Below are positions 20,170 through 36,831 of a stretch of DNA of 47,909 nucleotides, piece after piece. The stretch spans positions 1 to 47,909 of the forward strand of contig CAVVYR010000011.1 in the NCBI GenBank assembly GCA_963752475.1, given 5' to 3'. This DNA is from an uncultured Chloroflexia bacterium (GTDB lineage: Bacteria; Chloroflexota; Limnocylindria; Limnocylindrales; CSP1-4). Every line of letters begins with the position of its first letter. Position 1 is the stretch's first letter. Both the position numbers and the translations under genes were made by a program. The notes beneath the pieces are model-generated. The model did no database searches and had not been told where the DNA came from. It was given only the letters and a program-made list of their open reading frames with translations.

Positions 20170-21053
20170 TACCGTGGCTTGACCGGGTACTTCTTGCGCA
20201 GGGCCAGGATGGCCTTCTCCACGAGGGTGGTGGCATTGGCGAGATCGCGCGTGAGGGCGCGCATGTCGTCCACGCTGCCCACGAGCGTCTTCACCGGATG
20301 CATGACCTCGTTGCGCAGCTCGCCCAGGGGTCTGGTCATGGAGTTCCACTTGTTCGTCTCGTACTTGCCCAGCTCCATGCGCAGCGCGCGGTCCTTCGCG
20401 AAGACGCGCAGCAGGTGCTTGAAGTCGAGGTACGAGACGATGTCGTCATGGCCCGAGCCGACCCCGCTGCGCTGCATGCGCTGGTTGAGGTCCTCGACGT
20501 CGCGGCTGCCGAGGTGGGCGATGAGGTTCGACTGGTTCGCGCCGTACTTCCAGCGGATGAGGTCGGCAAGGGCGATCTCCAGCCCGGCCAGCACCAGGTA
20601 GTAGTAGGCGCGCGCGGGCTGCTTGTTGAAGTCCCAGATGCTGATGATGCCGGTGATCTCGCGACCCTCGAGCACGAAGAGGATGCGCTGGTCCGCGATC
20701 CACTCCATGATCTCCGAGATGGGCGTGTCGCCGCTGACGATGGCGCCGCCGGCGAGCGAGTTGGTCACGTTGCGGATGGGCTGCTCGGGGTCGGCCCTCT
20801 GCAGCTTGGAGCGCCGCACGTACCCGACGACCCGGCCCTTCGAAGTGACGGGTACGTTCTCCCAGCGGTTCGCCGTCATCGTCCTGAGCACGTTGCCGGC
20901 CTTGCTGTAGAGGTCGAACGTCGGCGCGCGCTCGATGTCGATCTCGATGTGGCGCGCTCGCACGCCTTGTCCGAGGTCGATGTGGGGAACGCTGTTCTCC
21001 CAGCTGCGCGAACGCGTCGGCAGCGGGCGTGGGGTCCGGTGTTCAGCCGTCAT
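20169..21053 (-). CDS. CBS-pair protein with C-terminal Swt1-like HEPN domain
   Basis: VPVTSKGRVVGYV and FVLEGREITGIISIWD (CBS pair); LEIALADLI, YLDFKHL, LRNEVMHP (Rx4H). Confidence 0.8.
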   Translation of the reverse strand: MTAEHRTPRPLPTRSRSWENSVPHIDLGQGVRARHIEIDIERAPTFDLYSKAGNVLRTMTANRWENVPVTSKGRVVGYVRRSKLQRADPEQPIRNVTNSLAGGAIVSGDTPISEIMEWIADQRILFVLEGREITGIISIWDFNKQPARAYYYLVLAGLEIALADLIRWKYGANQSNLIAHLGSRDVEDLNQRMQRSGVGSGHDDIVSYLDFKHLLRVFAKDRALRMELGKYETNKWNSMTRPLGELRNEVMHPVKTLVGSVDDMRALTRDLANATTLVEKAILALRKKYPVKPR

Positions 21054-21181
21054 GCGGTCTCGGGGTGGCGGGTCATGAGGAAGACGGCCTCCTGCTCGTG
21101 GCCGTCGGATCGGGTGGGGTGCTCGATGTGCCGGTCCGTCGCGGATCGGTCGGTGAGCCGTGGATCCAGGCTGCTGGGCAT
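21050..21181 (-). CDS. 43-aa small ORF translationally coupled to CBS-HEPN
   Basis: GGAGG SD 9 nt before the ATG at 21181; its TGA overlaps the CBS-HEPN ATG (ATGA). Confidence 0.45.
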   Translation of the reverse strand: MPSSLDPRLTDRSATDRHIEHPTRSDGHEQEAVFLMTRHPETA

Positions 21182-21234
21182 GGTGTCTTCCCTCCGTGAG
21201 CGCGAACTGTGCCACAGTCCCGCTCGGAGGTGTG

Positions 21235-21837
21235 ATGCGAACTCGGTCCTTGCTCTCGCTGCTGGTGGCGCTTGCGCTGGTGCTCGTACCCGGTGCCGCG
21301 CCCGCGCTCGATGCACCCAGCCCGCCCGACGACGGCGAGGTCGTGCGAGTCATCGAGGTCATCGACGGCGACACCATCCGCGTCGAGTGGCCCGACGGCT
21401 GGTGGGAGCGCGTGCGCTACATCGGCATCGATACGCCCGAGATCGGCCACGATCCCGACGAGGCCGATGAGCCCTGGGGTCGCGAGGCCACCGCGGTCAA
21501 CGCCGACCTTGTCGATGGGCGGGACGTCCTGCTCGAGTCCGACGTCAGCGACACCGACCGGTACGACCGGCTGCTGCGCTACGTGTGGGTGGAGACCGAC
21601 GCCGACTGGGTCATGGTCAACGGCGAGCTCGTCGCGCGCGGCCTCGCCGACGTCCGCGCCTACGAGCCCGACACGAAGCACCACACCTGGTTCCAGCAGC
21701 TGCAGGACGGTGCCCGTGCTGCCGGATCGGGCATGTACGGCGACGGGGACGAAGACGACGATGGGAACGGCTCCTCCGAGCTCGAGGAGAAGGGCTTGCT
21801 CGAGCAGCTGCTCGACCTCATCGGGTGGGAGGACTAG
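21235..21837 (+). CDS. Thermonuclease (SNase-like) family secreted nuclease
   Basis: Signal peptide; VIDGDTI, VRYIGIDTPE, DRYDRLLRYV, VNGELVARGLA; SD GGAGG. Confidence 0.93.
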   Translation: MRTRSLLSLLVALALVLVPGAAPALDAPSPPDDGEVVRVIEVIDGDTIRVEWPDGWWERVRYIGIDTPEIGHDPDEADEPWGREATAVNADLVDGRDVLLESDVSDTDRYDRLLRYVWVETDADWVMVNGELVARGLADVRAYEPDTKHHTWFQQLQDGARAAGSGMYGDGDEDDDGNGSSELEEKGLLEQLLDLIGWED

Positions 21838-21995
21838 GCCCCGGGAGTCGACCTGCAGCGCCGCCTGCCCACACCGACGGCCGACGCCGGGGGCGGAGAC
21901 AGGGAGCTGGCCCCATGGCCGATGCGGACAGCGAAGTAGCACCCGGCCGCTGACGTGTCATGAGAGCTGGCACGAGTCTGGAGCACACTGGCGCC

Positions 21996-22181
21996 ATGGA
22001 TGACCAGGAGATCTGCTCGCGCTGCGGGTCGCCGCTGGATAGCGATCCCGATGACGACCCTGCCGGAGGCGTCGATGGGCTGCCACTCTGCGGCGAGTGC
22101 GTACGCAACCGCGACGCAGCGGCCGACTTCGAGGCCGTGGACATGATGGACGGCGAGCTGGACGGGATGATCGATCTCTGA
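21996..22181 (+). CDS. Small acidic zinc-ribbon protein
   Basis: CSRCG...LCGEC; CACACT-N6-ATG. Confidence 0.65.
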   Translation: MDDQEICSRCGSPLDSDPDDDPAGGVDGLPLCGECVRNRDAAADFEAVDMMDGELDGMIDL

Positions 22182-22341
22182 ATCAGGCATCGAAGCGGCG
22201 GGATCGAGGCCCCGTCGCATCGCCAGCTGACGCGTCAGGGCGCACGGATCACCGCGCCCGAGCCGCCGGTGCTACCGTGAACGTGAAATCGATTACACCG
22301 CTGGTCCCCCCTGGCGATACGACGAACGACGGAGCGTTCTG

Positions 22342-22752
22342 ATGCGGTGGACCGCGCATGGTCTGGTGGCCCTCGTGGCCGGAGTCCTCTTGGGTAGTTC
22401 GCTCGTCTCGGGTGCGCTGGCGCAGGTCAGCGACCCGGAGTCGGCGGTCATCTTCGATCTCTCGCGGGTGCCGAACGACGAGGCGGCTCAGCGCGAGCTC
22501 TTCAGTGCCACCGACGTATCGGACGCCGAGACCCTGGCGATCCATGGGTTCCGCGACGAGCTGGTGCAGGCCCTGCGCGATGCGAAGGCCGAGTTGGCGA
22601 GGTATCGGGCATACCGCGACGAGCCCCGCTGGGCCACCATCTACGACGGTTGGGGCTACGTCGACATCGAGCGATTGGCCGACTACGTCCCCATCGCCCA
22701 GCACGTCGAGGACCATCCCGACGCCCTCGGTTCTAGGGAGACCGTCCCATGA
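22342..22752 (+). CDS. Secreted protein, short paralog 1 of a four-gene family
   Basis: Signal peptide ALA-Q; W...VDIERLADYVPIA..HP motif shared with the downstream genes; ATGA overlap. Confidence 0.7.
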   Translation: MRWTAHGLVALVAGVLLGSSLVSGALAQVSDPESAVIFDLSRVPNDEAAQRELFSATDVSDAETLAIHGFRDELVQALRDAKAELARYRAYRDEPRWATIYDGWGYVDIERLADYVPIAQHVEDHPDALGSRETVP

Positions 22753-24641
22753 CTCGAATCCTGTCCAGCTTGACCGCCGTCCTCATGGCCCTGGTGCTGG
22801 CCATGGGCGCCCTGGCTCAGCCGGCCGACGACGAGTGGGTCGACTCGCTGGTCATGGCCCGTGATCGGCTCGACAGTGACATCGCCCTGCTCGACGGGGA
22901 GCTGACCTCGATCGCCGAGCGGATCGCGAGCGACGACTGGCGTATCGACACGGATGCGACGGGGAAGCTCGTCGAGCTCGATCTGCGCACGCTCGACCGG
23001 TACGTGCCGCTCGCGGTGGTGTTTTCCCAGCATCCCGGCATACTCCGGCTGGAACTGAGCGAGGTGCTCTGGCAGGCCGATCCTGCGGCGTGGGGTGCCG
23101 TGATGGCGATCGGCAAGACCGGTGACCTCGAAGGCAAGACCGTGGACGAGGTCATCGCCATGGTCCGTCGCGCCAATCAGCAGAGCGCGGACGACAAGCG
23201 CGCGGTGTACACCGACTGGAAGCAGAAGGTGCAGGCCGAACGCGATGGGCTGGCGGAGTTGCGCGATGAGATCCAGCGCGAGCTCGATGCCATCGCGAAT
23301 GCCGCCGGCGCCTCGGCATCGCCGGAGGCCTCCCTCGAACCGAGCCCGCTGCCATCACTGGCTCCGTCCCCCGACGTCACCCCCGAACCGAGCCTCGAAC
23401 CGAGCCCCGAGCCCTCGGTCTTGCCGTCGTCTGCGCCATCACCTTGTCCCGAGAGCGATATGTGGTGCCAGGACGAGGACCAGGAAGCCGCACCCGCACC
23501 CTCGCCGCTCCCGTCGCCCGCACCCTCGCCCACGCCGGCCGAGGCCACACCGGGGATCGAGGTCGACGGCGTCCAGTACGACGCACTCGAGGGCCTCACC
23601 GCCTGTGCCGAGGATGATCCCGCGTGCAGCACGATGGGAGCCCTCATGACCTGCTGGGGCAACGAGCTCGGCTGCTATTCGCCCGCGATCGCACCGGACG
23701 CGGCCACCGAGCTCTGGAGCACCGGGGTCTTCGACGGAGACTTCGAAGGCTGGGGCATCACCGCGCACCTCGAGCAGGTGAGCTCGGCCGTCAGCGGCAC
23801 GATCGAGGACCGCAAGGGACCGCTGGAGATCGTGGCCGAAGAGGTCAGCCGAAACCGCGTCGAAGGCCACTACTTCGGTGACGTCTGGTGGCAGGTCGGT
23901 CGCGACGACGGCAGCATGGGGCCTGCGGATGTGCCGTTCCAGGGCTGCTCGGAGCCTCGCGATGGCACGACCTTGTGGGGGGAGGTCACCATCACGCCCA
24001 GCGACGGCTGGGGGCATGATCGAGAGCCACAGACGCACCTGACCATCGACGCCCGTCCGTGCGACGAGGCCTGGCGCGAGGCCAACCCTGCGTATGACAA
24101 CGCGAACCAGTGGCTCGTCGACGGGCCTCGGACGCCGCCACCAGGTTCCGCTTGGGCCCAGGCGCCCGTCGATGCCGCGCGACCCTGGGCTGGCGAGTGG
24201 TTCGTCGATCTTGGCTCGATGCGCATCGACCAGCAAGGCGACCAGCTCACGGGACTGATCCTCTCGCCGGATGGCGCGGTGACATTCCAGGCTGAGCCGA
24301 TGGACCCAGCCCTCGCCGGCGACCTCTATGACCCCACCGTCACCCGGGTCGGCCGATGGCAAGGCGACGCCTTCGCCTCCTGGCTGGCCGGCTTCGGCAG
24401 CATCCCCGCTGACTGGGGTTGCGCCGCACCGCGCGATGGAGCCGACCAGTGGGGCGATATCCTGCTGCGCATCGGCGGCACCGACGGTGATGCGATGAAC
24501 CGCATCGATGCCGCGTGGTTGCCGTGCGACGAGGCCTGGCGGGATGCCATCGGCTATAACGACGACTACGACTGGTGGTATGACCGCGAGGACAAGTTCA
24601 GCGGATGGCGGCTGCGCCTTGCGGCCGCATCGGAGGAGTGA
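22749..24641 (+). CDS. Secreted protein, paralog 2 (coiled-coil N-module, PS linker, two Trp/Cys beta modules)
   Basis: Signal peptide; DDW...ELDLRTLDRYVPLA; EPSP linker; two G.W/F...Q....G...C...WG...C modules. Confidence 0.85.
   Translation: MTRILSSLTAVLMALVLAMGALAQPADDEWVDSLVMARDRLDSDIALLDGELTSIAERIASDDWRIDTDATGKLVELDLRTLDRYVPLAVVFSQHPGILRLELSEVLWQADPAAWGAVMAIGKTGDLEGKTVDEVIAMVRRANQQSADDKRAVYTDWKQKVQAERDGLAELRDEIQRELDAIANAAGASASPEASLEPSPLPSLAPSPDVTPEPSLEPSPEPSVLPSSAPSPCPESDMWCQDEDQEAAPAPSPLPSPAPSPTPAEATPGIEVDGVQYDALEGLTACAEDDPACSTMGALMTCWGNELGCYSPAIAPDAATELWSTGVFDGDFEGWGITAHLEQVSSAVSGTIEDRKGPLEIVAEEVSRNRVEGHYFGDVWWQVGRDDGSMGPADVPFQGCSEPRDGTTLWGEVTITPSDGWGHDREPQTHLTIDARPCDEAWREANPAYDNANQWLVDGPRTPPPGSAWAQAPVDAARPWAGEWFVDLGSMRIDQQGDQLTGLILSPDGAVTFQAEPMDPALAGDLYDPTVTRVGRWQGDAFASWLAGFGSIPADWGCAAPRDGADQWGDILLRIGGTDGDAMNRIDAAWLPCDEAWRDAIGYNDDYDWWYDREDKFSGWRLRLAAASEE
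22761..23415 (+). repeat. 655-bp direct repeat, copy 1
   Basis: Matches 25801-26455 (offset 3040) with about 6 substitutions by eye. Confidence 0.95.
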
Positions 24642-24649
24642 GGATCCCG

Positions 24650-25792
24650 ATGAAGAAGACACTCTCGATGCTCCTGAGCGGCGCGCTGACCCTGGTCCTC
24701 GCCCTTCCCGTGGTGGCCCAGGCAGAGGAGGTCCGGACCGAGCTGCTCGGCGACATCGGACGCACCATGACCCAGGTACAGGCGGAGCTGGCCGCTATCG
24801 ACGAGCGCGAGGCCAGCGACGACTGGATGGTCTTCGAGTCGCAGGACCGCGGCCTGATCGAGGTCGATCTGACGAGGATCGACGAGTGGATCCCCGCGGC
24901 GAAGGTGCTTCGTGATGGCTCGTCCTCAGAGCAGGCCATGAGCGACGCGGTCGCGTCAAGGGTGCCCGACTTGTGGGAGGCCTCGGTCCTGCTCGCTGAT
25001 GCGCCCGAGTGGGTGTTCGACGCCGGTTCGGACGCCGTCATCGCCTGGCTCCGCGATCGCTTCGGCCACCTCCAGACCCCGGAGCGCAAGGCCGCTCTCT
25101 ATGATGCGGAGCGCGCGCGTCTGCTCGAGGACCTCGAGGCACTGCGTCGCACCCAGGAGTTCTTCGAGTCCGAGGTGCTCCTGACAGAGACGCCGCAGAC
25201 CGAGACGGCACAGACCGAATCAGCGCAGGTCGAGAGCTTCTGCCGTGAGATCGCCAAGGGTGAGACGCTCATGGCCGAAGACGGCTCGACCACCTACCTG
25301 GGCGAGCCGATCCCACCCATCGAAGACTTGCCCGACTGGTGCCGAGACGCGCTGCTCGTGTGGCTCACCGGCAGCGATGAGCCACTCCCCACGCCACCTG
25401 TGGAGGACGGCGTGGCAGCGCAGATCCGCCAGAGCCAGGACCCACTCGAGTGGGAGACCGACAAGGCCATCGACCACGGCCGCTGGAACGGCCTCTGGGA
25501 GTACTGGGGCTATCCCGGGCTCACGCTCGTGCAGGTCGGCGACCACGTCTTCGGGACATACCAGGACGGCGACGGCTGGATGAAGCTGGCGGTCCAGGAC
25601 GAGCACACGCTCATCGGCCACTGGTATGAGAACGAACACGCGAGCATCACCTGCGAGAGTGAACGGGACGGCACGCAGCACTGGGGTTCGCTACAGCTGC
25701 ACTTCGACGATGACTTCAGCGCCTACGAGGGCACCTTCGGTGACTGCGGGGACCTGACCGGCTCGTGGATCGACGGGAACCGCGCCCAGTGA
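24650..25792 (+). CDS. Secreted protein, paralog 3
   Basis: Signal peptide; DDW...EVDLTRIDEWIPAA; C-term WNGLW...QVGDHVFG...C...HWG...C. Confidence 0.85.
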   Translation: MKKTLSMLLSGALTLVLALPVVAQAEEVRTELLGDIGRTMTQVQAELAAIDEREASDDWMVFESQDRGLIEVDLTRIDEWIPAAKVLRDGSSSEQAMSDAVASRVPDLWEASVLLADAPEWVFDAGSDAVIAWLRDRFGHLQTPERKAALYDAERARLLEDLEALRRTQEFFESEVLLTETPQTETAQTESAQVESFCREIAKGETLMAEDGSTTYLGEPIPPIEDLPDWCRDALLVWLTGSDEPLPTPPVEDGVAAQIRQSQDPLEWETDKAIDHGRWNGLWEYWGYPGLTLVQVGDHVFGTYQDGDGWMKLAVQDEHTLIGHWYENEHASITCESERDGTQHWGSLQLHFDDDFSAYEGTFGDCGDLTGSWIDGNRAQ

Positions 25793-27045
25793 TGCGGCTG
25801 CTGTCCAGCTTGACCGCCGTCCTCATGGTCCTCGTGCTGGCCGCGGGCGCCCTGGCTCAGCCGGCCGACGACGAGTGGGTCGACTCGCTGGTCATGGCCC
25901 GTGATCGGCTCGACAGTGACATCGCCCTGCTCGACGGGGAGCTGACCTCGATCGCCGAGCGGATCGCGAGCGACGACTGGCGTATCGACACGGATACGAC
26001 GGGGAAGCTCGTCGAGCTCGATCTGCGCACGCTCGACCGGTACGTGCCGCTCGCGGTGGTGTTTTCCCAGCATCCCGGCATACTCCGGCTGGAACTGAGC
26101 GAGGTGCTCTGGCAGGCCGATCCTGCGGCGTGGGGTGCCGTGATGGCGATCGGCAAGACCGGTGACCTCGAAGGCAAGACCGTGGACGAGGTCATCGCCA
26201 TGGTCCGTCGCGCCAATCAGCAGAGCGCGGACGACAAGCGCGCGGTGTACACCGACTGGAAGCAGAAGGTGCAGGCCGAACGCGATGGGCTGGCGGAGTT
26301 GCGCGATGAGATCCAGCGCGAGCTCGATGCCATCGCGAATGCCGCCGGCGCCTCGGCATCGCCGGAGGCCTCCCTCGAACCGAGCCCGCTGCCATCACTG
26401 GCCCCGTCCCCCGACGTCACCCCCGAACCGAGCCTCGAACCGAGCCCCGAGCCCTGTGCAACCAGCGGCGAGAACGCCATCGACGTGCTCTCCTGTGACT
26501 GGGATGCCACGCCCGAACCGACGCTGATGCCCGAGCCGCTCGGCGACCCGGGCATCGACTGCGCCGGCGAGTTCGCGGATGCGCTCGAGGCGCCGTACAC
26601 GTCGTTGTCCGTCGCTCAGATCGGTGCCTGCTTCGATGACTGCCAGGACTGGATCTCGTGGCACGGCAGCTTCGGCGATACCCTGCCCGGCTGGTGCTCG
26701 GAACCGGAGGACTCACCGCTCGCGATGTGGGAAGGGCAGTGGCCCACCAACCGTGGCGTGCTGACCCTGACGGCCGAGGCGGGTCGGCTGATCGGCGAGT
26801 TCGAGTCGGGTGCCGACAGCTCGCTGGCTGGTGCACAGGTCGTGCTCGAGCCAGGTGAGGAGAACAGGTACTCTGCCGTCGGTCGCTGGAGCAACACCGA
26901 AGGACGATACGAGTGCGCCGACGAGTTCGGGGCCGAACCGGGCCACTGGGGTGAGATCTGGCTCGACCTGGGCGCGAACGACCTGCTCTTCGGTGGCTTC
27001 AACCACTGCAATGAACGGGGCGGCGGCTGGATCGACATGGACTAG
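25792..27045 (+). CDS. Secreted protein, paralog 4 (N-half duplicated from paralog 2)
   Basis: TGATG coupling; near-identical N-module; C-term WEGQW...C...HWG...C. Confidence 0.85.
   Translation: MRLLSSLTAVLMVLVLAAGALAQPADDEWVDSLVMARDRLDSDIALLDGELTSIAERIASDDWRIDTDTTGKLVELDLRTLDRYVPLAVVFSQHPGILRLELSEVLWQADPAAWGAVMAIGKTGDLEGKTVDEVIAMVRRANQQSADDKRAVYTDWKQKVQAERDGLAELRDEIQRELDAIANAAGASASPEASLEPSPLPSLAPSPDVTPEPSLEPSPEPCATSGENAIDVLSCDWDATPEPTLMPEPLGDPGIDCAGEFADALEAPYTSLSVAQIGACFDDCQDWISWHGSFGDTLPGWCSEPEDSPLAMWEGQWPTNRGVLTLTAEAGRLIGEFESGADSSLAGAQVVLEPGEENRYSAVGRWSNTEGRYECADEFGAEPGHWGEIWLDLGANDLLFGGFNHCNERGGGWIDMD
25801..26455 (+). repeat. 655-bp direct repeat, copy 2
   Basis: See copy 1 at 22761-23415. 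Confidence 0.95.
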
Positions 27046-27077
27046 CGGCCGCCCCTGAGAATCGGTAGCCTCTGCAC

Positions 27078-28322
27078 ATGACGTTCGGGACCGTCACGAG
27101 CCGCCTGTTGAGCGCCGGCATCAGCGCATCCGTGGCTGTGGCGATGCTCACATCCTCGGCCTTCGCGGCCGCCACGGACCCCGAGCTCATCGCCACCGTC
27201 GAGCTGCCCGAGGGCGACATCCAATACGAGATGGAGCTGGGCACGCTGCATTTCTTCGACGGTGAGGATCAGCCCTTCGCCATCCAGGCCATCGACGGCT
27301 GCAGCATCAACGGGCACGTCTGGCTCTTCGGCGCCGGCCTCTCCGGCATCCCCATCCCGGTGGCGGTGACCGATCGCCAGACGAACCGTTCTGAACGGCT
27401 GCTGCTGCCGGCCTTCGAGCCGGACAAGCCTATCGGTACCCAGTTCCTGCCCGAGGCGCTCGAGATCTGTCTCGAGGAAAGCCAGGTCGGCGGTCTGCCC
27501 CCGCTCGACGCGACGGCCACGTTCACCTCGGCCAACAACAAGGGCCAGGACGCGACCGACCTCATCACCCTGCTCGCGGACGGTCGTGACGACGCCTACC
27601 AGCGCATCTATCGCGGCGGCGAGACGTGGTCGGTCATCACTAGGGGCTCGCCCATCGCGGCCATCGACCTGGACGGCGTCGGCGATCAGTTGCTGCTCTT
27701 CAGCGAGAGCCGCACCCCGCGTCAGCTCGAGGGCATCATGTTCTCCGGCAAGGACGGCATGCTGCCCGCCACGGACAGGCTCGAGAAGACCATCAACGGC
27801 CTCACCAACGCCCGCGTCCGCCGTGCCTACGAGACCGCCAAGGCCGGCCGTGTGCCGCGGGGCATCATCGAGGACCTCCGCCTCAAGGGCGTCGAGCGCG
27901 TCCATCACGTCTCACTCGACTTCGACACGCTCGGCGCCGACGCCTATCTCGCCGCCGCACGCTGGATCAAGGAGGGCGGCGCGCCCATCGAGCCACCCGA
28001 CCCGGTCGCGCAGCGATTCACCGTCGAGCTCGTCACTGCCGCCGGCGACCGCACCGAGATCCCGCTGGTGGGGCCGCTCATCGGCAGCGATGCGGAGGGC
28101 AAGCGCTGGGAGCATGCCAACGGGGAGGCGCTGGTCGAGATCATCGATACCTGCTCCCTGACCGGCACCTTCTGGACCTGGGCCGGCGTGGCCACCGACG
28201 AGCCGGTCGAACTGGTCATCACCGACAGCAAGGACGGGACCTCGGTCTCCCACCTCGTGTGGACCGACCGACGAGACGTCTCACGCCACGCTGACACCGG
28301 CGCGCTCGACAGTTGCCCCTAG
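27078..28322 (+). CDS. Secreted hypothetical protein with two Cys-containing repeat domains
   Basis: Signal peptide; IDGCSINGHVWLFGAG...VTD and IDTCSLTGTFWTWAG...ITD; TAGCCT-N6-ATG. Confidence 0.8.
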   Translation: MTFGTVTSRLLSAGISASVAVAMLTSSAFAAATDPELIATVELPEGDIQYEMELGTLHFFDGEDQPFAIQAIDGCSINGHVWLFGAGLSGIPIPVAVTDRQTNRSERLLLPAFEPDKPIGTQFLPEALEICLEESQVGGLPPLDATATFTSANNKGQDATDLITLLADGRDDAYQRIYRGGETWSVITRGSPIAAIDLDGVGDQLLLFSESRTPRQLEGIMFSGKDGMLPATDRLEKTINGLTNARVRRAYETAKAGRVPRGIIEDLRLKGVERVHHVSLDFDTLGADAYLAAARWIKEGGAPIEPPDPVAQRFTVELVTAAGDRTEIPLVGPLIGSDAEGKRWEHANGEALVEIIDTCSLTGTFWTWAGVATDEPVELVITDSKDGTSVSHLVWTDRRDVSRHADTGALDSCP

Positions 28323-28392: not shown

Positions 28393-29226
28393 ATGGGTAA
28401 GGCCAAGTGGTGGGTCTGTGAGAGCTGCACGAGCCTGAACGATCTGCCTGCCAACAAGTGCTACAACTGCCGGGTCGCCAAGCCGGGGAACGCGAAGCTC
28501 ATCGATGACCAGTACAGCCAAGTCGGTGGTGGCGAACAACGCGTCGGCATCACCGTCGACCTGTCGAAGGTCGGGGACCTGACCCGACCTGACCCCAAGG
28601 AAACCGCCGAGGGTGGCAGCTTCGTGCAGGCCTTCGAGCAAGGCGACGACGCCGAAGAGGGCGTGGCCACCGATATGCCTCAGACACCGCGGTACGACCC
28701 GTACGCCGGTGCCTTCGAGTCGACTCCATCGTCGCCCGCCGAGCCTCGGCCGATCCGCGAGCCGACGAGACGCGGCATCGACGCCATCGGTGGACGGCAT
28801 TGGACCGAGCCGGAGCCCACGCCGGCCGCTGAGGGGGAGCCCACGCCGGCCGCTGAGGGGGAGCCCGCGCCGGCCGCGGTCCCACCCCCACCGGGGTCGT
28901 CACCGCCGTGGCCGCCGCCCGGGGCTGCTCCACCGCCGCACGGCACCCAGCTACCTCCAGCGCCACCGCCCGGCGCTGCCCCTCCGCCGCCCCGCACCCA
29001 GCCACCTCCGGGCGTTCCACCTCGGCCGATGGTTCCTCCGCCGCCCCGCACCCAGCCTCCAGGCGCTCCGCCTCGGCCGATGGCTCCACCGCCACCCGGC
29101 CCACCTCGCCCGCCCGGCGCGCCGCTACCGCCACCGGGTTCGCAAGGTCGCCCGCCCATGCCTCCGCCCCCACCCGGAACCGCGCCACTTCCGCGACCAC
29201 CGCGGGAGGCGCCCAAGGACGAGTAG
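28393..29226 (+). CDS. RanBP2-type zinc finger protein with proline-rich tail
   Basis: WVCESCTSLNDLPANKCYNC fits W-x-C-x2-C-x3-N-x6-C-x2-C; polyproline C-terminus. Confidence 0.8.
   Translation: MGKAKWWVCESCTSLNDLPANKCYNCRVAKPGNAKLIDDQYSQVGGGEQRVGITVDLSKVGDLTRPDPKETAEGGSFVQAFEQGDDAEEGVATDMPQTPRYDPYAGAFESTPSSPAEPRPIREPTRRGIDAIGGRHWTEPEPTPAAEGEPTPAAEGEPAPAAVPPPPGSSPPWPPPGAAPPPHGTQLPPAPPPGAAPPPPRTQPPPGVPPRPMVPPPPRTQPPGAPPRPMAPPPPGPPRPPGAPLPPPGSQGRPPMPPPPPGTAPLPRPPREAPKDE
28813..28877 (+). repeat. 24-bp coding tandem repeat x2.7 (EPTPAAEG)
   Basis: GAGCCCACGCCGGCCGCTGAGGGG repeated. Confidence 0.9.
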
Positions 29227-29597: not shown

Positions 29598-29728
29598 CGC
29601 CAGGGAAAGCCGACCGACCCAGCCCCGCTGTAGTCGTGCGTACGAACTCACACCCGAGAACTGGCACTTCGGGTCCCGATTCCGGTACCCTGCACTCCCT
29701 GAGTGAGGGGGAAGGAGAGGTCGCGGCC

Positions 29729-32700
29729 ATCGTCACATGCTCTAGTTGCTCTGCGGAGAACGCTACTGGCCGCCGCTTCTGTGATCAGTGTGGCGCCAGC
29801 CTCGCTGCTTCCTGCCCGGACTGCGGCGGCGAGAACCGTCCTGAAGCTCGCTTCTGCGGGGATTGCGGCCAGCCCCTGACGCCCGGTGCCACCGCGGCAT
29901 CCGCGACCACGCCCGCACCCGCGGCAGCAGCGTCGAGTCCGGCCACCGGTTCCGCCGCCGAACGCCGCCTCGTCTCCGTCCTCTTCGCCGATCTCGTCGC
30001 CTTCACCAGCTACTCCGAAGGCCGTGACCACGAAGCCGTGCGCGAGACGCTCACGCGCTATTTCGAGGCCACGCGCGAGGTCATCGAGCGCCACGGTGGT
30101 GTGGTCGAGAAGTTCATCGGCGATGCCGTGATGGCCGAATGGGGTGCTCCACGCACCAACGAGGACGACGCCGAACGAGCGGTGCGGGCAGCCCTGGAAG
30201 TGGTCGAGGCCGTACGTAATCTGGGTGAGGACCTGCACGCGCGCGTGGCCGTGCTGACCGGACAGGCGGCCGTCACCATCGGCGCTACCGACCAGGGCAT
30301 GGTCGCGGGCGATCTGGTCAACACCGCCGCCCGCCTGCAGGCCGCCGCTCCGCCGGATGCCGTCCTCGTCGGGCAGGCCACGATGCAGGCCGCGTCGAGC
30401 GCCATCGCCTTCGAGGAAGCGGGCGATCAGATACTCAAGGGCAAGACCGTGCCGGTCCCCGCCTGGCGTGCCCTGCGCGTGGTCGGTGACACCCGCGGCA
30501 AGGGTCGGACCGAGGGCCTGGAGCCACCGTTCGTCGGCCGTGAGCTGGAGCTGCGCCTGCTGAAGGACCTGCTCCACGCCACGGGCAAGGAGCGCCGACC
30601 ACGCCTCGTCTCGATCACCGGCCCCGGCGGAATCGGCAAGAGCCGCCTCGCGTGGGAGTTCGAGAAGTACGTCGACGGCCTCGTCGAGGGCATCTACTGG
30701 CACCGCGGTCGCTCGCCCAGCTATGGCGATGGCATCGCATTCTGGGCCCTGGGCGAGATGGTCCGTCGTCGCGCCAACCTCATCGAGAGCGACGATGAAG
30801 CCACCACCCGCGATGGTGTGCACCGCGTCGTCGAGGAGTTCATCGAGGCGGACGATCAGGCTTGGGTCGAAGGCGCACTGCTGACGCTGCTGGGCCTGGA
30901 GCCGCCGCCGCCCGGCGGCCGTGACGCGTTGTTCGCCGCCTGGCGCACGTTCTTCGAGCGCATGGCCAGCGATTCCACGACCGTGCTCATCTTCGAGGAT
31001 CTGCAGTGGGCCGATCCAGGCCAGCTCGACTTCATCGACCACCTCATGGAGTGGGCCAAGGGCGTGCCCTTGCTGGTGGTGACGCTGGCTCGACCGGATC
31101 TCCTCGAACGGCGGCCCGGCTGGGGTACCAGCGCGCGTTCCTTCAACGCCATCGGCCTGGAGCCGCTCACCGCCGAGCAGATGGGCGCGCTGTTGACTGG
31201 CCTCGTGCCCACGATGCCAGCGGACGCGGTCGAAGAGGTTCTCTCGCGCGCGGACGGCATCCCACTCTATGCCGTCGAGACCGTGCGCATGCTCGTCACC
31301 GACGGCCGCCTCGTGCCCGATGGCGAGACCACCTTCCGTCCATCCGGCGACCTCGGCGAGCTGACCATCCCTGATTCGCTGCGAGCGTTGGTCGCCTCGC
31401 GTCTCGACGGCCTCGATCCCGACGATCGAGCCCTGCTCCAGGATGCCACGGTGCTGGGCCAGACCTTCGACCATCGGTCGCTCGCGCACATCGCCGGACA
31501 GGACGAGGACGCGGTCGAGGGCCGGCTCAACGCGCTGATCAAGGGCGAGCTCCTGGAGATCTCGGTCGACCCGCGCTCGCCGGAACGCGGCCACTACGGC
31601 TTCGTGCAGTCGGTCATCCGGGAAGTCGCCTACGAAACGCTCTCGCGCCGTGATCGACGCTCGCGGCACCTGGCTGCTGCCCGCTACTACGAGGCCGAGG
31701 GTGACGAGGAGCTGGCAGCTGTCCTGGCCACCCACTACCTCGCGGCGCTCGAGACCTCCGACCCCGGGCCGGAGGCCGACGCCTTGCGGGTGCAGGCACG
31801 CCTGTCGCTTCGAGCAGCGGCCGACCGGGCCCTCGACCTGGGTTCGCCCGACCAGGCCACGACGCATCTCGAAGCCGCCTTGGGCGTGACCACCGAGCCT
31901 GCCGAACGGGCACCGCTGCTGCTGCGCGCGTCCGACGCGGCCACCGCCGCCGGTGCCGTGCCCAAGGCCGTCGAGTTCGCGCGCGAGTCGATGGCGGCGT
32001 ACCGCGCGGTGGGCGATACGGTCGCGGCACTCAGCGCTGCTGGCAATCTGTCCAGCCACCTGCTTGACATCGGTCAGCTGGACCAGGCGACCGAGCTGCT
32101 CGAAGCCGCGGTCGTCGAGGCTGAGCCATACCCGGAGGTCCAGGCCGACCTGCTGGCGCGCTCGGCTCGGGCCTATATGCGCCTGACTCGTGACGAGGAG
32201 GCGGTCGCCGCCGCCGACCGCGCCATCGTCCTCGCTGAGCCACTGATGCTCGACCGCATCGTGGCCGAGGCCATGGCCAACAAGGGCTCTGCTCTGATGA
32301 AGCTGGGGCGGCTGCGCGAACCACAGCTGCTGCTCACCGCCGCTGCCGACGTGGCCCATGCGGTGGGGGACCACGATCTCGAGCTGCGCGCTCGAGGCAA
32401 TCTCAGCGTGGCCCTCTTCATGCATGATCTGCCCGCGGCCGAGGAGCTGCGGCGACAGGGCGTCGAGCTGGCCACGCGGCTCGGCTCCTACAAGTGGAGG
32501 GACCTGTTCGCTGCGGCCAGCGTGAGCAGTGCTGACATCGCCGGCGTCGACTGGGACGGCGGCCTCGAGGCGCTCGAAGGGCTCCTCGCCGAGGACATCG
32601 AGGTCATCGCCCACGCCGAGCTGTTGGAGACCAAGGCAAGGCTTCTGATGGCACGTGGGGAGGATTCCAGCGAGACGCTGGCCCAGCTGCGAGCCATCGG

Positions 32701-33259
32701 CGATGGGATCGGTGATGGTGAGCTGCAGGCGTTATGCGCAGTGGTCGAGGCCGAGCAGCACTTCTATGAAGGTCGACTCCACGAGGCGCAGGCGATGCTG
32801 CGCGAGGTCACGCCGCAGCTGGGACAGAACGTCGCCCTCGGATGGATCGACCAGGTCGTCGTGGGTGCGGTCCTGCGGGACCTCGAGGCGGTGCGATCGG
32901 CCGAGGTGTCCCTGCGAGTGGACCCGCAATACAACAACGCCATGGCTGCCAGCAAGCAGTTGGCTGCCGCCTGTCTCGCCGCACTCGAGGGTCGCGAGGT
33001 CGATGCTGTGGCGGAGTACCGTGGCAGCGTCGAGCACTTCGAAGCGGCGGGCTGGCACTACTGGGTCGCGATCGCACGGGTGCTGGCGCTGACGCTGATG
33101 CCCCGGGAGCCGGCCTTCGACGGCTGGGAGGAGGTGGCTCGCGCCCGCCTCGAGACGCTCGGCGCCAAGCCAGCCCTGCGCCTGCTCGACGAGGCCGTGG
33201 CCCAGGCCTCTCTCGCACCCAGCCCGATCCCTGCCACCGAGGCGAGCCCATCCCGATGA
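29729..33259 (+). CDS. Double zinc ribbon-class III adenylate/guanylate cyclase-STAND AAA ATPase-TPR protein, copy 1 (start uncertain; alternative GTG at 29636)
   Basis: 4x CxxC; FADLVAFT, EKFIGDAVM, GDLVNTAARLQ; GPGGIGKS; FEDLQWAD; helical C-terminus. Confidence 0.92.
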   Translation: MVTCSSCSAENATGRRFCDQCGASLAASCPDCGGENRPEARFCGDCGQPLTPGATAASATTPAPAAAASSPATGSAAERRLVSVLFADLVAFTSYSEGRDHEAVRETLTRYFEATREVIERHGGVVEKFIGDAVMAEWGAPRTNEDDAERAVRAALEVVEAVRNLGEDLHARVAVLTGQAAVTIGATDQGMVAGDLVNTAARLQAAAPPDAVLVGQATMQAASSAIAFEEAGDQILKGKTVPVPAWRALRVVGDTRGKGRTEGLEPPFVGRELELRLLKDLLHATGKERRPRLVSITGPGGIGKSRLAWEFEKYVDGLVEGIYWHRGRSPSYGDGIAFWALGEMVRRRANLIESDDEATTRDGVHRVVEEFIEADDQAWVEGALLTLLGLEPPPPGGRDALFAAWRTFFERMASDSTTVLIFEDLQWADPGQLDFIDHLMEWAKGVPLLVVTLARPDLLERRPGWGTSARSFNAIGLEPLTAEQMGALLTGLVPTMPADAVEEVLSRADGIPLYAVETVRMLVTDGRLVPDGETTFRPSGDLGELTIPDSLRALVASRLDGLDPDDRALLQDATVLGQTFDHRSLAHIAGQDEDAVEGRLNALIKGELLEISVDPRSPERGHYGFVQSVIREVAYETLSRRDRRSRHLAAARYYEAEGDEELAAVLATHYLAALETSDPGPEADALRVQARLSLRAAADRALDLGSPDQATTHLEAALGVTTEPAERAPLLLRASDAATAAGAVPKAVEFARESMAAYRAVGDTVAALSAAGNLSSHLLDIGQLDQATELLEAAVVEAEPYPEVQADLLARSARAYMRLTRDEEAVAAADRAIVLAEPLMLDRIVAEAMANKGSALMKLGRLREPQLLLTAAADVAHAVGDHDLELRARGNLSVALFMHDLPAAEELRRQGVELATRLGSYKWRDLFAAASVSSADIAGVDWDGGLEALEGLLAEDIEVIAHAELLETKARLLMARGEDSSETLAQLRAIGDGIGDGELQALCAVVEAEQHFYEGRLHEAQAMLREVTPQLGQNVALGWIDQVVVGAVLRDLEAVRSAEVSLRVDPQYNNAMAASKQLAAACLAALEGREVDAVAEYRGSVEHFEAAGWHYWVAIARVLALTLMPREPAFDGWEEVARARLETLGAKPALRLLDEAVAQASLAPSPIPATEASPSR

Positions 33260-36200
33260 GCGTGCAGTGCGCCCGATGCGGCCGCGAGAATGCGGCCGAC
33301 GCTGCCTTCTGCGACAACTGCGGTGGGGCCCTCGAGTCGGGCTGCCCGAACTGCGGCTCCGAGAATCGACCAGGAGCCAAGTTCTGTCGCAGCTGCGGCA
33401 CCCGTCTGGGTGAAGCCGAAGCAGTCGCGGTGGCCGAGGCCTCGTCTGCAGCGAATACATCGGCCGACGCCAGGACCGCGGAACGACGGCTGGTGACGGT
33501 GCTCTTCGCCGACCTGGTGGCATTCACCGACTACAGCGAGGGTCGTGACCACGAGCTCGTGCGCGAAACGCTGACGCGCTACCACGAGGCCACGCGCCAT
33601 ACGATCGAGCACCACGGCGGGCTGGTGGAGAAGTTCATCGGCGACGCGGTCATGGCCGTCTGGGGCGCCCAGAAGGCCAACGAGGACGATCCCGAGCGTG
33701 CCGTTCGGGCTGCCCTCGAGGTCACCGAAGCCGTGCGCAACCTGGGCGAGGGTCTCGAGGCCCGCGTCGGTGTGCTCACCGGACAGGCTGCCGTGACCAT
33801 CGGTGCTACCGATGAGGGCATGGTCGCGGGCGACATGGTCAACACCGCCGCCCGCCTGCAGGGCGTCGCTCTTCCGTCGTCGGTGCTGGTAGGGGAGGCC
33901 ACGATGCATGCGGCCGCCGACGCTATCGCCTTCGAGACAGCCGGCGAGCACCAGCTCAAGGGCAAGTCCACGCCAGTGCCGGCATGGCGCGCGCTGCGCG
34001 TCGTGGGCGATCGCGGTGGCCGCAGCCGCAGCGAGAGCCTGGAGCCGCCGTTCGTCGGCCGCGAGGTCGAGCTGCGCCTGCTCAAGGACCTCTTGCACCA
34101 GATCGGCGAGGAGCAGCGACCGCGCCTGGTGTCGATCACCGGCCCCGCCGGCATCGGCAAGAGCCGGCTGGCGTGGGAGTTCGAGAAGTACCTCGACGGC
34201 CTTGTCGAGGACGTCTACTGGCACCGTGGGCGTGCCCCGAGCTACGGCGAAGGGGTGACCTTCTGGGCACTCGGAGAGATGGTTCGCAAGCGCGCCGGCC
34301 TGCTCGAGTCCGACGACGAGGACACCACCCGGCGCCGGATCCACGACACCGTCGAGCGATGGGTGCCGGACCAGAAGGACCGCGAGTGGGTGGAGCCGGC
34401 GCTGCTGACGCTGCTGGGCCTGGAGCCCGCGCCGGCCGGCGGACGAGACGTGCTCTTCGCCGCCTGGCGCATCTTCTTCGAGCGCATCGCCCGTCACGGC
34501 ACGACCGTGCTCCTCTTCGAGGATCTCCAATGGGCCGACGGCGGGCAGCTCGACTTCATCGACCACGTCATGGAATGGGCCAAGGGCGTGCCGCTGCTGG
34601 TGGTCACGTTGGCGCGGCCGGACCTGCTCGAGCGACGGCCGGGTTGGGGCACGGCCGCGCGTTCGTTCAACACCATCGGGCTGGAGCCCCTGACCGACGG
34701 CCACATGCGCGAGCTGCTCACGGGCCTCGTTCCCACGATGCCCGCCGAGGCCATCGAGCAGGTTCTTGCGCGCGCAGACGGCATCCCGCTCTACGCGGTC
34801 GAGACCGTGCGTATGTTGGTCTCCGACGGCCGGTTGACGGCCACCGACGAAGGCACCTTCAGTCCCGCCGGCGAGCTCGGCGAGTTGGCCATGCCCGACT
34901 CCCTGCGTTCGCTCATCGCCTCGCGCCTCGATGCTCTCGACGAGGCCGATCGCTCGCTGCTGCAGGACGCAGCCGTGCTGGGCAAGACCTTCTCAGCCGA
35001 CGCGCTGGCAGCCATCTACGGCCAGGAGTCATCCGAGATCGAGCCCCGCCTGCGGGCTCTGACCAAGCGTGAGCTGCTGGAGATCTCCGTCGATCCGGCC
35101 TCGCCCGAGCGCGGCCAGTACGGCTTCGTCCAGTCGGTCATCCGCGAGGTGGCGTACGACACGCTCTCCCGCCGCGACCGCCGCGCACGGCACCTGGCGG
35201 CCGCGCGCTACTTCGAGGCCCTCGATGAAGACGAGCTCGCAGGCGTGCTCGCGACCCACTACCTCGCGGCGCTGGAGGCCACTGATCACGGGCCCGACGC
35301 CGACGCGCTCCGTATCCAGGCTCGCCTCGCGCTCAGTGGTGCGGCCGAACGGGCCTCGTCCCTGGGGGCGTGGGACCAGGCCCTCGAGCAGCTGCGGCAG
35401 GCTCTTGACATCACCGAGGACGCGGCCGAACGCGCCAACCTGCTCGAACGCGCGGCCGATGCAGCCGACCTCGCGGCCCGCTACGTGGAAGCCGAGGTCC
35501 TGGGCTTCGACGCCATCGAGGCCTATCGCTCGGTGCCAGACCCGAGTGGCGTGGCCAGGGTCTCCGCCCTGATGGGCGGCATCCTCGTCGACAGCGGCAA
35601 GCTGACCGAGGTGGTGTCGTTCCTGGAGGCCGCCATCGCCGCCGCCGATCGCCCCGAGGACGATGAGCACCGAGCGGACATGCTGGCGCGGCTGTCGCGT
35701 GCGCACATGCGGCTGACCGAGGAGACCGCGGCCATCGAGCGAGCGAACCAGGCCCTCGACATCGCCGAGCCGCGCCGGCTCAAGCGCATCATCGCCGAGT
35801 CCTTCGTCAACAAGAGCGCCTCGCTCAACGCCCTCGGACGCTTGCGAGAGTCGGTGGTCCTGATGCAGGCGGCCGTCGAGCTGGCCCACGAGATCGGGGA
35901 TCTCGCCCTCGAGCTACGCGCACGCAACAACCTGGCCATGGTCCAGGCTTCTGAAGACTGGGATCGGGCCCTGGCCGGTGCCCGCGAGTCGTATGACCTG
36001 GCCAACCGGCTGGGCGTCCAACAGATGTCGACATGGCTTTCGGGCGCCATCGGCATCGGCGCCATCGGAGAGGGCCTCGACTGGGACGGATCCCTGCAGC
36101 GGATCGACGACCAGCTGGAGGTTTCGCCATCGGACGTCGATCGGGCCAGGCTGATCGGTGTGCGCGAGGACATCATGGCCTGGCGCGGCGAGAGCGATCC

Positions 36201-36831
36201 CGAGTTGACGGCCGAGCGTTTGCGTCTGGGGGCCTCGATGAGCGATCCGGACATGGACGCCTGGAACTTCCACATCCCCGCGAACCTGGCTCTCGCCTGC
36301 GGCCGGTTCGACGAGGCCATCAGCACCTTCCGCAAGTTGGCCACGATCAACTACCAAGCCGTCACCGAGGCACGCCAGGGGTTGACTCTGGCTGCGCAGT
36401 TGGCCGGTCATGCAGCGGCCGCGCGCGAGGCGCGAGATGCGATGGCGAGGGATAGCTCCGCGGGTCACTACGCTGACGCCGTGCGCGCGCTGACCGCTGC
36501 CGGCGTGGCCTCGTTCGACGGTGATGACGACCAGGCGCTGCATCACTACCGCACCGCCATCGAGGAGTTCGTGGCCTGCGCTGCGAGGTTCAACGCCGCG
36601 CTCGCCAAGCTCGCCGCGCTCGCCCGGCTACCTGACGAGCCCGCCATCGACGGCTGGGCCGACGAGGCCCGCGAGCGCTTCGAGATCGTGAAGTCGCCGG
36701 CGTTGCTTGAGCGGCTCGAGGAGGTCGTCTACGCTCGCGACCATGGGGGAGCCAATGGCATGGCTGGCAGCGAGCGAGGAGCCGTGGACGCGGTATCGGA
36801 CGCTGTTGGACCTGGAGGCGCGAGCGCCTGA
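33256..36831 (+). CDS. Double zinc ribbon-cyclase-STAND ATPase-TPR protein, copy 2
   Basis: ATGA overlap with copy 1; same motifs (GDMVNTAARLQ, GPAGIGKS, FEDLQWAD). Confidence 0.92.
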   Translation: MSVQCARCGRENAADAAFCDNCGGALESGCPNCGSENRPGAKFCRSCGTRLGEAEAVAVAEASSAANTSADARTAERRLVTVLFADLVAFTDYSEGRDHELVRETLTRYHEATRHTIEHHGGLVEKFIGDAVMAVWGAQKANEDDPERAVRAALEVTEAVRNLGEGLEARVGVLTGQAAVTIGATDEGMVAGDMVNTAARLQGVALPSSVLVGEATMHAAADAIAFETAGEHQLKGKSTPVPAWRALRVVGDRGGRSRSESLEPPFVGREVELRLLKDLLHQIGEEQRPRLVSITGPAGIGKSRLAWEFEKYLDGLVEDVYWHRGRAPSYGEGVTFWALGEMVRKRAGLLESDDEDTTRRRIHDTVERWVPDQKDREWVEPALLTLLGLEPAPAGGRDVLFAAWRIFFERIARHGTTVLLFEDLQWADGGQLDFIDHVMEWAKGVPLLVVTLARPDLLERRPGWGTAARSFNTIGLEPLTDGHMRELLTGLVPTMPAEAIEQVLARADGIPLYAVETVRMLVSDGRLTATDEGTFSPAGELGELAMPDSLRSLIASRLDALDEADRSLLQDAAVLGKTFSADALAAIYGQESSEIEPRLRALTKRELLEISVDPASPERGQYGFVQSVIREVAYDTLSRRDRRARHLAAARYFEALDEDELAGVLATHYLAALEATDHGPDADALRIQARLALSGAAERASSLGAWDQALEQLRQALDITEDAAERANLLERAADAADLAARYVEAEVLGFDAIEAYRSVPDPSGVARVSALMGGILVDSGKLTEVVSFLEAAIAAADRPEDDEHRADMLARLSRAHMRLTEETAAIERANQALDIAEPRRLKRIIAESFVNKSASLNALGRLRESVVLMQAAVELAHEIGDLALELRARNNLAMVQASEDWDRALAGARESYDLANRLGVQQMSTWLSGAIGIGAIGEGLDWDGSLQRIDDQLEVSPSDVDRARLIGVREDIMAWRGESDPELTAERLRLGASMSDPDMDAWNFHIPANLALACGRFDEAISTFRKLATINYQAVTEARQGLTLAAQLAGHAAAAREARDAMARDSSAGHYADAVRALTAAGVASFDGDDDQALHHYRTAIEEFVACAARFNAALAKLAALARLPDEPAIDGWADEARERFEIVKSPALLERLEEVVYARDHGGANGMAGSERGAVDAVSDAVGPGGASA

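Follow-up and report, generated by a model that had tools for sequence, protein, structure and literature searches.

A tandem array of putatively exported Chloroflexota proteins with a common, apparently genus-restricted N-terminal domain and predicted calycin-like barrels

Two described systems offer analogies to the locus reported here. The PE/PPE proteins of mycobacteria have a conserved helical N-terminal domain and variable C-terminal parts, are encoded by clustered paralogs, and change through recombination and gene conversion; they use type VII secretion for export and carry no Sec signal peptide. The dockerin-bearing components of cellulosomes are exported proteins that have a small handle in common and carry different modules behind Pro/Thr-rich linkers, and the same system includes proteins made of repeated handle-type modules. 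We analyzed an array of four genes, A to D, at positions 22,342–27,045 of contig CAVVYR010000011.1 from an uncultured Chloroflexia bacterium (assembly GCA_963752475.1; GTDB lineage Limnocylindria, Limnocylindrales, CSP1-4). The window is the whole stretch of 47,909 nt that was analyzed, which is this entire contig (C11), and it belongs to a metagenome-assembled genome (MAG; G000) of 4.25 Mb in 38 contigs with 88.8% completeness and 5.8% contamination. All four proteins have in common an N-terminal module of ~150 residues, which was supported by profile tests against all 40,336 open reading frames (ORFs) of the genome at E values of 1e-9 to 2e-15. Judging from profile matches, the barrels that follow in B, C, and D belong to a large, widespread, and unnamed domain family. 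We give an even chance to the reading that the array encodes a lineage-restricted tandem set of Sec-exported, non-enzymatic modular proteins, in which the barrels would bind ligands and the N-domain would be the common handle.

The four genes are on the forward strand and mostly overlap, as a preliminary description of this DNA had noted. Gene A (22,342–22,752, 136 aa) encodes a signal peptide and a partial N-module with no barrel. Gene B (22,749–24,641, 630 aa) encodes a signal peptide, an N-module, a linker rich in Pro, Ser, Thr, and Cys, and two barrels. Gene C (24,650–25,792, 380 aa) encodes a signal peptide, an N-module, a Thr/Glu/Gln-rich linker with two Cys residues, and one barrel, and gene D (25,792–27,045, 417 aa) has the same order with a Pro/Ser/Thr linker and a Cys-rich insert before its one barrel. 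The linkers that had been noted, which would be flexible, are present in B, C, and D. With alternative starts, gene C would encode 395 aa from the upstream ATG at 24,605 and gene D 426 aa from the GTG at 25,765. Genes A and B overlap by 4 nt (ATGA) and genes C and D by 1 nt (TGATG), and 8 nt separate B from C. GGAG is found 8 nt 5' of the ATG of gene A and GGAGGAG ahead of that of gene C. The GC content is 67–71% throughout the window, and the GC content at the third (GC3, 0.84–0.87) and second (GC2, 0.45–0.52) codon positions of genes A–D is comparable to that of other genes on the contig. A scan for promoters and terminators found no promoter-like site and three terminator-like sites, compared with 1.5 ± 1.1 expected; two of the three are inside the duplicated coding tract described below, which makes the scan uninformative. 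Contigs assembled from RNA libraries of two studies map onto A, B, C, D, and the gene for a 414-aa protein downstream with 91–100% identity, and one of them spans the B/C junction (24,600–24,750). These contigs are a weak hint of transcription, since the libraries may contain DNA. Bins with no cover numbered 11 of 30 in run X10, 21 of 30 in X16, and 18 of 30 in X18, and no meaning attaches to these gaps. One RNA-library contig (run X18) has a 15-nt insertion at 25,210 in the Thr/Glu/Gln-rich repeat of the gene C linker, which would be a linker length variant of a related strain.

The preliminary description had proposed a module common to the four N-termini and suggested building hidden Markov models (HMMs) for both the N- and C-terminal modules; both modules were recovered from the genome with such profiles at significant E values. 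An HMM built from C orthologs, of which the signal peptide was removed, detected only C, D (8e-10), and B (1e-9) among the ORFs. An A-type HMM, built from seven modules of which none was from A, one was from a paralog of the same genome, and the rest were from other genomes, detected A at 2e-15 over positions 1–66 of 149 and D, B, and C at 2e-7 to 7e-7. Comparison of the C-type and A-type profiles with hhalign gave a probability of 98.8% over 139 columns. With blastp, C was linked to B and D (33% identity over 96 residues, E 4e-8), and A showed nothing significant against B, C, and D (E >= 0.1). B, C, and D match HMM positions 9–149 or more and hold the whole module, at 22,845–23,291 in B (envelope 37–185 of ORF C11_22737_24638 with the N2 HMM, E 9e-45), 24,731–25,186 in C (residues 28–179, from the HMMs and the structure model), and 25,885–26,331 in D (N2 HMM envelope 48–196 of ORF C11_25744_27042). 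The module started at residues 20–44, just behind the signal peptide, in 43 of 46 proteins that contain it; in the remaining three it started at residue 1 (two cut proteins) or at residue 117 (P0054).

Gene A is a special case. The first helix, the beta-hairpin, and the start of the head of the module were found by hmmsearch at 22,537–22,725 (residues 103–165 of ORF C11_22231_22749), and the match stops there, a few codons before the start of gene B. Over 69 residues, A has 58% identity to a protein from genome G190, which is 411 aa long and carries two N-modules in tandem but no barrel. Its membership in the family is based on the profiles together with this identity to a full-length relative. 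Since A matches only positions 1–66 of the 149, its sequence indicates that an A-type gene was truncated here and that A is what remains of it, not a short paralog complete in itself. A broader profile detected one further paralog in the genome, with two tandem N-modules. This gene (contig C7, 229,572–231,278, forward strand) is unlinked to the array and encodes a signal peptide, a domain of ~170 residues, and the two N-modules but no barrel; the ~170-residue domain also heads the A-type gene at locus L018.

The N-module had no relative in Pfam, NCBIfam, PHROGs, PADLOC, the sequences of the PDB, Foldseek searches, or the ESM Atlas. For the full proteins A–D, no Pfam match was found at E <= 0.1 and no NCBIfam match at E <= 0.01, and PHROGs and PADLOC gave nothing except one PHROG match of 23 residues (E 0.0011). 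An NCBIfam match of the B linker to PspA was rejected as low-complexity (18.8 bits compared with a cutoff of 850). In the part of the literature accessible to a broad search, nothing on the N-module or the barrel domain was found, which does not prove them undescribed. The N-domain therefore appears to be new, with no relative in curated libraries or solved structures. The earlier statement that no family could be recognized thus holds for the N-module, which has no library match, and fails for the barrels, which belong to a large unnamed family of a known fold type.

The distribution of the N-module is narrow. Protein C as a query matched two of 200 other genomes of the order, one of them weakly, and the N-module profile matched none of 400 other genomes across the phylum, in each of which nine first-look candidates were scored. 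Within the genus, seven of 48 other genomes matched, giving eight of 49 with the source genome (G000, G190, G590, G593, G597, G598, G599, and G603). Sequence searches thus place the N-domain, as far as they reached, in a single genus of uncultured Chloroflexota. At least two family genes are adjacent in six of the eight positive genomes. The usual order elsewhere is an A-type gene, a C-type gene, and further barrel genes, and in the window gene B is placed between the A remnant and C. Gene C has 12 homolog clusters with 43–75% identity. The protein encoded just 5' of the C-type gene at four places (L015 1440–1471, L019 7960–7987, L054 ~5500–5535, and L018 7960–7988) ends in (N/D)PFAD and one further residue after a Pro/Thr tail, and there the DNA element CC(C/G)TTCGCCGAC is conserved 12–25 nt ahead of the next start codon. 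It may serve as a motif of the peptide or as a signal for translation, and the window, where B precedes C, lacks it.

We modeled the structures of the N-module and of the full-length protein C with AlphaFold2 (AF2). The N-module of C alone (residues 27–180, alignment of 37 rows) was predicted with a mean local confidence (pLDDT) of 92.8 and a predicted template-modeling score (pTM) of 0.81. The model consists of a helix (2–29), a beta-hairpin (33–47), five short helices (48–115), and a long helix (118–153). The first and last helices are predicted to pair as an antiparallel coiled-coil stalk, and the hairpin and the five short helices would form the head. The preliminary description had placed a coiled coil after the N-module; in the models, this is the last helix of the N-module itself, paired with the first. 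The full-length model of C (13 orthologs) had a mean pLDDT of 70.5, with good scores in both domains and poor scores in the linker. Foldseek detected nothing below E 0.09 for the N-module model and no match at E <= 0.001 for either model, and the ESM Atlas gave no usable match for the N-module. Structural alignment of the N-module gave Z scores of up to 10.3, and the top matches align only ~68 of 154 residues, namely the two long helices. For the modeled domain, such matches lie in the non-specific range for helical hairpins. One likeness is that to prefoldin, in which two long antiparallel helices also carry a beta-hairpin at the tip (6vy1_A, Z 9.6, 76 residues aligned with a root-mean-square deviation (rmsd) of 1.8; 1fxk_C, Z 9.5, 107, rmsd 5.0; 2zdi_C, Z 9.1, 99, rmsd 10.7). 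However, ~85 head residues of the N-domain, including the five short helices, do not have a counterpart in prefoldin, and these Z scores are within the same non-specific range. Moreover, the N-domain proteins carry a signal peptide for export whereas prefoldin is cytosolic, and a sequence match to prefoldin subunit 4 was not significant (E 0.83).

The C-terminal beta modules were assigned by a family HMM at 23,727–24,131 (B1, residues 331–465, with Cys400 and Cys438) and 24,183–24,602 (B2, residues 483–622, with Cys558 and Cys593) in gene B, and at 26,722–27,033 (residues 327–430, with Cys375 and Cys406) in gene D. The module of gene C was assigned at 25,478–25,789 (residues 277–380, with Cys335 and Cys366), where AF2 also predicted the strands. 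B1 and B2 are related by blastp (1.2e-8), and all four modules are joined in a pairwise similarity network. An additional HMM was built from 139 barrels of proteins without an N-module, after removal of eight modules at least 40% identical to those of the array family. This outside-only HMM gave E values of 2.6e-17 for C, 1.1e-7 for B, and 1.6e-4 for D, and no further ORF in the genome reached E <= 1. Together with the network and the family HMM, it bears out the module counts of 0, 2, 1, and 1 in A, B, C, and D that had been read from the sequence. The motif of Gly, Trp, and Cys residues reported at the same time corresponds to the invariant columns G281, W283, G287, C335, W345, G346, and C366 of an alignment of 12 full-length relatives (A4). 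The Cys pair, ~30–38 residues apart, the G.W start, and the WG motif are the marks of the unnamed family, and they are found in the barrels of the array. The barrel of D is 70% identical to module 2 of P0016.

A profile search with A4 in 1.84 billion representatives, clustered at 50% identity, detected 812 proteins at E <= 0.001. A domain census of 160 proteins found the barrel in 141, the N-module in 46, and both in 28. No Pfam or NCBIfam match above cut-off covered the barrel itself in the 144 representative hits scanned, and the sources of ten sampled relatives call them hypothetical proteins, or a sigma factor in the case of the fused one. Other Pfam domains were present in 24 of the 144 proteins: Peptidase_C14 (four), OmpA (four), SH3_3 (three), and VWA, Sel1, PKD, cadherin-like, VWD, PAN, LCCL, Laminin_B, Lcl_C, and CHRD (one each); one protein is a sigma factor with an anti-sigma-like part. 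The fusion partners, as recognized in these sequences, point to an extracytoplasmic binding role of the barrel family.

In the full-length model of C, the region of residues 260–380 had block-mean pLDDT values of 76–92 and contained eight strands spanning 281–378. The barrel is thus predicted to be an eight-stranded antiparallel up-and-down fold of ~105 residues that resembles calycins, and its two conserved Cys residues probably form a disulfide. The structural matches of the barrel (VIA) had Z scores of 7.1–9.6 with 86–100 residues aligned at rmsd 2.6–3.1. The highest scores were those of designed eight-stranded barrels (Z 9.3–9.6), including mFAP and the best match 6czj_B (Z 9.6, 89 aligned, rmsd 2.6). 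They were followed by Cap15 (7n34, Z 9.0, 88 aligned, rmsd 2.7), the N-domain of PvdP (Z 8.7), streptavidin (4jnj_D, Z 8.3, 91 aligned, rmsd 2.7), bradavidin (4ggr, Z 8.0, 86 aligned, rmsd 2.6), and the lipocalin HP1028 (4inn_B, Z 7.8, 91 aligned, rmsd 2.6), and avidins as a whole were at Z 7.1–8.3. Matches of the model to calycin-like proteins show the fold type, not the function. Neither a canonical barrel protein nor the A4 profile had a significant match among the sequences of solved structures. In the ESM Atlas the barrel matched unnamed clusters only, and the nearest score of 0.90 was also reachable by shuffled proteins; these matches were set aside. Avidin, lipocalin, designed, and Cap15 barrels are not known to have the conserved Cys pair or the WG motif.

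The N-termini of A–D consist of a basic residue, a hydrophobic core (2.5–2.9 in the best 12-residue Kyte–Doolittle window), and then ALAQ or VAQA. All four genes thus encode signal-peptide-like starts, as suggested previously, and we infer Sec-type export from them. A hydropathy scan of A–D detected no later window resembling a transmembrane segment, and A–D do not have the lipobox Cys of bacterial lipoproteins, as no Cys is present within the first 190 residues of any of them. The number of Cys residues in the mature parts is even (10 in B, four in C, and eight in D), with exactly two per barrel. Trp makes up 3.6–4.3% of mature B, C, and D.

Genes B and D contain a repeat of 655 nt with 99.08% identity, six mismatches, and no gaps by blastn (22,761–23,415 in B and 25,801–26,455 in D, both on the forward strand). 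In B it covers codons 5–222, which encode the signal peptide, the N-module, and the start of the linker. The edges are sharp, at codon 5 and inside the Pro/Ser/Thr linker, and the flanks are unrelated. The C-terminal 331 aa of B are 66% identical to P0022, and its N-terminal 212 aa are only 37% identical to this protein but 52% identical to P0016, which has D-type barrels and is, with P0015, an ortholog of D. In a tree of 42 N-modules, which was midpoint-rooted for drawing only, B and D group together as sister to P0015/P0016 (support 100/99), and the B-type P0020 and P0022 are outside. B is a chimera, and the simplest reading is its conversion by a D-type gene, with the direction taken from the grouping in the tree. 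Among the relatives, the N-module is combined with no barrel, one, or two, and the Cys-rich inserts differ. The proposed interchange of C-terminal domains is thus borne out within the array, where B joins a D-type N-part to barrels of another ortholog group, and the suggested comparison of the locus across related genomes gave the same picture of an N-module with varied barrel counts and inserts. Orthologs differ in 35–55% of their amino acids, which is too diverged for unsaturated synonymous rates and hence for ratios of nonsynonymous to synonymous substitution (dN/dS). The C and two-barrel orthologs at L018 (8001–9153) and L019 (7839–9148 and 9359–10,712) are split over two frames, by assembly error or decay.

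According to the reading that we prefer, cleavage of the signal peptide would leave the N-domain stalk and head, a flexible linker rich in Pro, Ser, Thr, and Glu that may carry small Cys pairs, and zero to two barrels. The barrels would be the binding units, with a separate specificity in each paralog. The N-domain would be the common handle that places the paralogs at the same extracellular place or partner, either by docking to an envelope component or by self-association. The array would change through duplication, recombination in the linkers, and gene conversion; a D-type gene would have donated the signal peptide, N-domain, and linker of B, and A would be a truncated A-type gene. No catalytic family was found in A–D in Pfam, NCBIfam, PHROGs, or PADLOC, and binding rather than catalysis is thus proposed. 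Several points weigh against this reading. The MAG is incomplete, and its contamination is 5.8%. The RNA evidence is weak, as it consists of assembled contigs from libraries possibly holding DNA. The handle role of the N-domain is purely what we infer. In the models, the Z scores of 7–10 for the barrel and of up to 10.3 over ~68 of 154 residues for the stalk are in a range that shows a common arrangement only. The proteins might also be an enzyme that was not recognized, because several of the barrel matches are enzyme domains (PvdP and D-aminopeptidase).

The N-modules might instead bind each other, as the preliminary description had suggested, and form a hetero-oligomeric or polymeric surface assembly with tandem A-type proteins as scaffolds and barrels as variable tips. 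The N-module is present in all paralogs, the arrays are tight and partly overlapping, A-type relatives have the module twice in tandem and no barrel, and helical hairpins often pair, with prefoldin subunits among the structural matches (Z 9.1–9.6). However, the prefoldin-like scores are within the non-specific range for helical hairpins, and each long helix of the N-module has a single conserved hydrophobic seam, which is already used inside the hairpin. There is therefore no positive sign in the sequence of a further coiled-coil interface. Moreover, the would-be scaffold A is cut to 66 of 149 module positions in the source genome, and the near-identical N-modules of B and D would have lost specificity between those two. 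We consider such an assembly unlikely.

Similarly unlikely in our judgment is a role like that of avidins or lipocalins, in which the proteins would scavenge small molecules outside the cell in soluble form. Each barrel would then enclose a vitamin, lipid, siderophore, or antibiotic, and the N-domain would serve only for stability or retention. The calycin-type barrel, with matches to streptavidin, avidin, bradavidin, wilavidin, and a bacterial lipocalin at Z 7.1–8.3, is consistent with this idea. The nearest Pfam-bearing Atlas cluster has Avidin in 16% of its members (score 0.87), zebavidin is the best PDB sequence match at a non-significant E of 0.098, and the first barrel strand contains the G.W motif, which is a calycin signature. 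However, searches of Pfam and of PDB sequences tied the barrels to no avidin or lipocalin family at a significant level. Elsewhere the barrel family is mostly fused to adhesion or protein-binding domains, which fits macromolecular ligands as well. The scavenger role is a sub-variant that we cannot separate from adhesion.

More doubtful still is an extended version of the handle idea, in which the N-domain would be a new fold that acts as the docking handle of a genus-specific surface display. The tandem-handle A-type proteins, possibly with the NPFAD tail, would be the scaffold or anchor into which the barrel paralogs plug, and recombination in the linkers would rapidly change specificity.

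It is very improbable that the array is decaying or non-functional, a set of lineage-specific junk paralogs kept by recency. The truncation of A, the splitting of the L018 and L019 copies by frame changes, and the patchy distribution in eight of 49 genomes of the genus would be expected from decay. However, the frame changes in related records may be assembly errors, and B, C, and D are intact with coding-type GC3. C has 12 homolog clusters at 43–75% identity with invariant Cys, Trp, and Gly columns, the predicted folds of both domains are confident, and RNA-library contigs were found on all genes. As to polymorphic toxin systems, Pfam, PADLOC, and PHROGs showed neither a toxin nor an immunity family, and the variable parts are barrels of one family. 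We can hardly credit a toxin that works like the ClyA-family alpha-pore-forming toxins, with the helical stalk and beta-hairpin head in place of their head and beta-tongue and with barrels that bind receptors. The matches that suggest it are weak, namely YaxB (6ek8_A, Z 8.8, 95 aligned, rmsd 4.5) and Tc toxin helices by structure and AhlB and SmhB by Foldseek (E 0.79–0.89), and such scores are at noise level for helical proteins. Apart from a few alternating core positions, the columns of the hairpin are polar or charged and not hydrophobic as in a beta-tongue. The N-domain is less than half the size of these toxins, and no partner components were found.

Directly downstream of the array is the gene for the 414-aa protein (27,078–28,322, forward strand), a frequent neighbor whose membership in the array is uncertain. 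The protein is putatively exported, with a signal-peptide-like start, and of no known family; it has 80 homolog clusters, all unnamed, and no Pfam, NCBIfam, PHROG, or PADLOC match. The array is directly upstream of this gene in four genomes (the window, L019, G190 at L016, and G603 at L054), and the gene is also present in G113, G119, G152, and G155, where the family profile found nothing. Among the genomes sampled, five of ten in the genus had it, as against none of 190 elsewhere in the order. The spacing from the N-formylglutamate amidohydrolase gene to the gene for the 414-aa protein varies, with ~250 bp in G113 and 6.7 kb in the window (20,350–27,077). This stretch of the window contains genes for a CBS protein and an SNase-type nuclease, a small zinc-ribbon ORF (21,960–22,181), and the array, and in the equivalent stretch of G119 this small ORF is accompanied by a nuclease, a UvrD-like helicase, and a deaminase-like gene. 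The next gene (28,393–29,226), kept directly behind the 414-aa gene in L019, L031, L032, L033, and L054, encodes a protein whose N-terminus has a zinc-ribbon-like CxxC pair and whose long tail is rich in Pro. Further downstream, 29,636–33,259 and 32,842–36,831 encode adjacent, mutually similar giant proteins, each with a double zinc ribbon, an adenylate/guanylate cyclase domain, AAA_16, and TPR repeats; these ORFs overlap by ~400 nt, and the second start is thus probably later. At 4911–8729 on the reverse strand, an ORF of 1272 aa has coding-type GC3 and no Pfam match at E <= 1e-4.

The N-domain would add to the known repertoire a domain that is predicted to fold confidently and has no relatives in curated libraries or solved structures. 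The barrel family, with 812 clusters at 50% identity and neither a name nor a model, is a gap in the domain libraries, and a family entry together with one ligand-bound structure would annotate many proteins at once. The B/D tract, with its sharp edges at codon 5 and in the linker, is a clean natural case of domain-level gene conversion. The practical value of the array is, for now, that of a lead.

How the locus compares with described systems can be stated part by part. We found no sequence or specific fold relation between the array proteins and PE/PPE proteins, and unlike cellulosome components, A–D have no cohesin, dockerin, or enzyme domain in Pfam. The barrels have the predicted eight-stranded up-and-down arrangement in common with calycin-type barrels but no significant sequence relation to them, as judged from Pfam, NCBIfam, and the non-significant zebavidin match. 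With the unnamed barrel family they have in common the G.W start, the WG motif, and the two Cys residues, whereas the array differs by the lineage-specific N-domain ahead of the barrel and by its tandem paralogs. The combination of a handle with variable binding modules is thus a known kind of architecture and the barrel is of a known fold type, and it is the N-domain that appears to be new.

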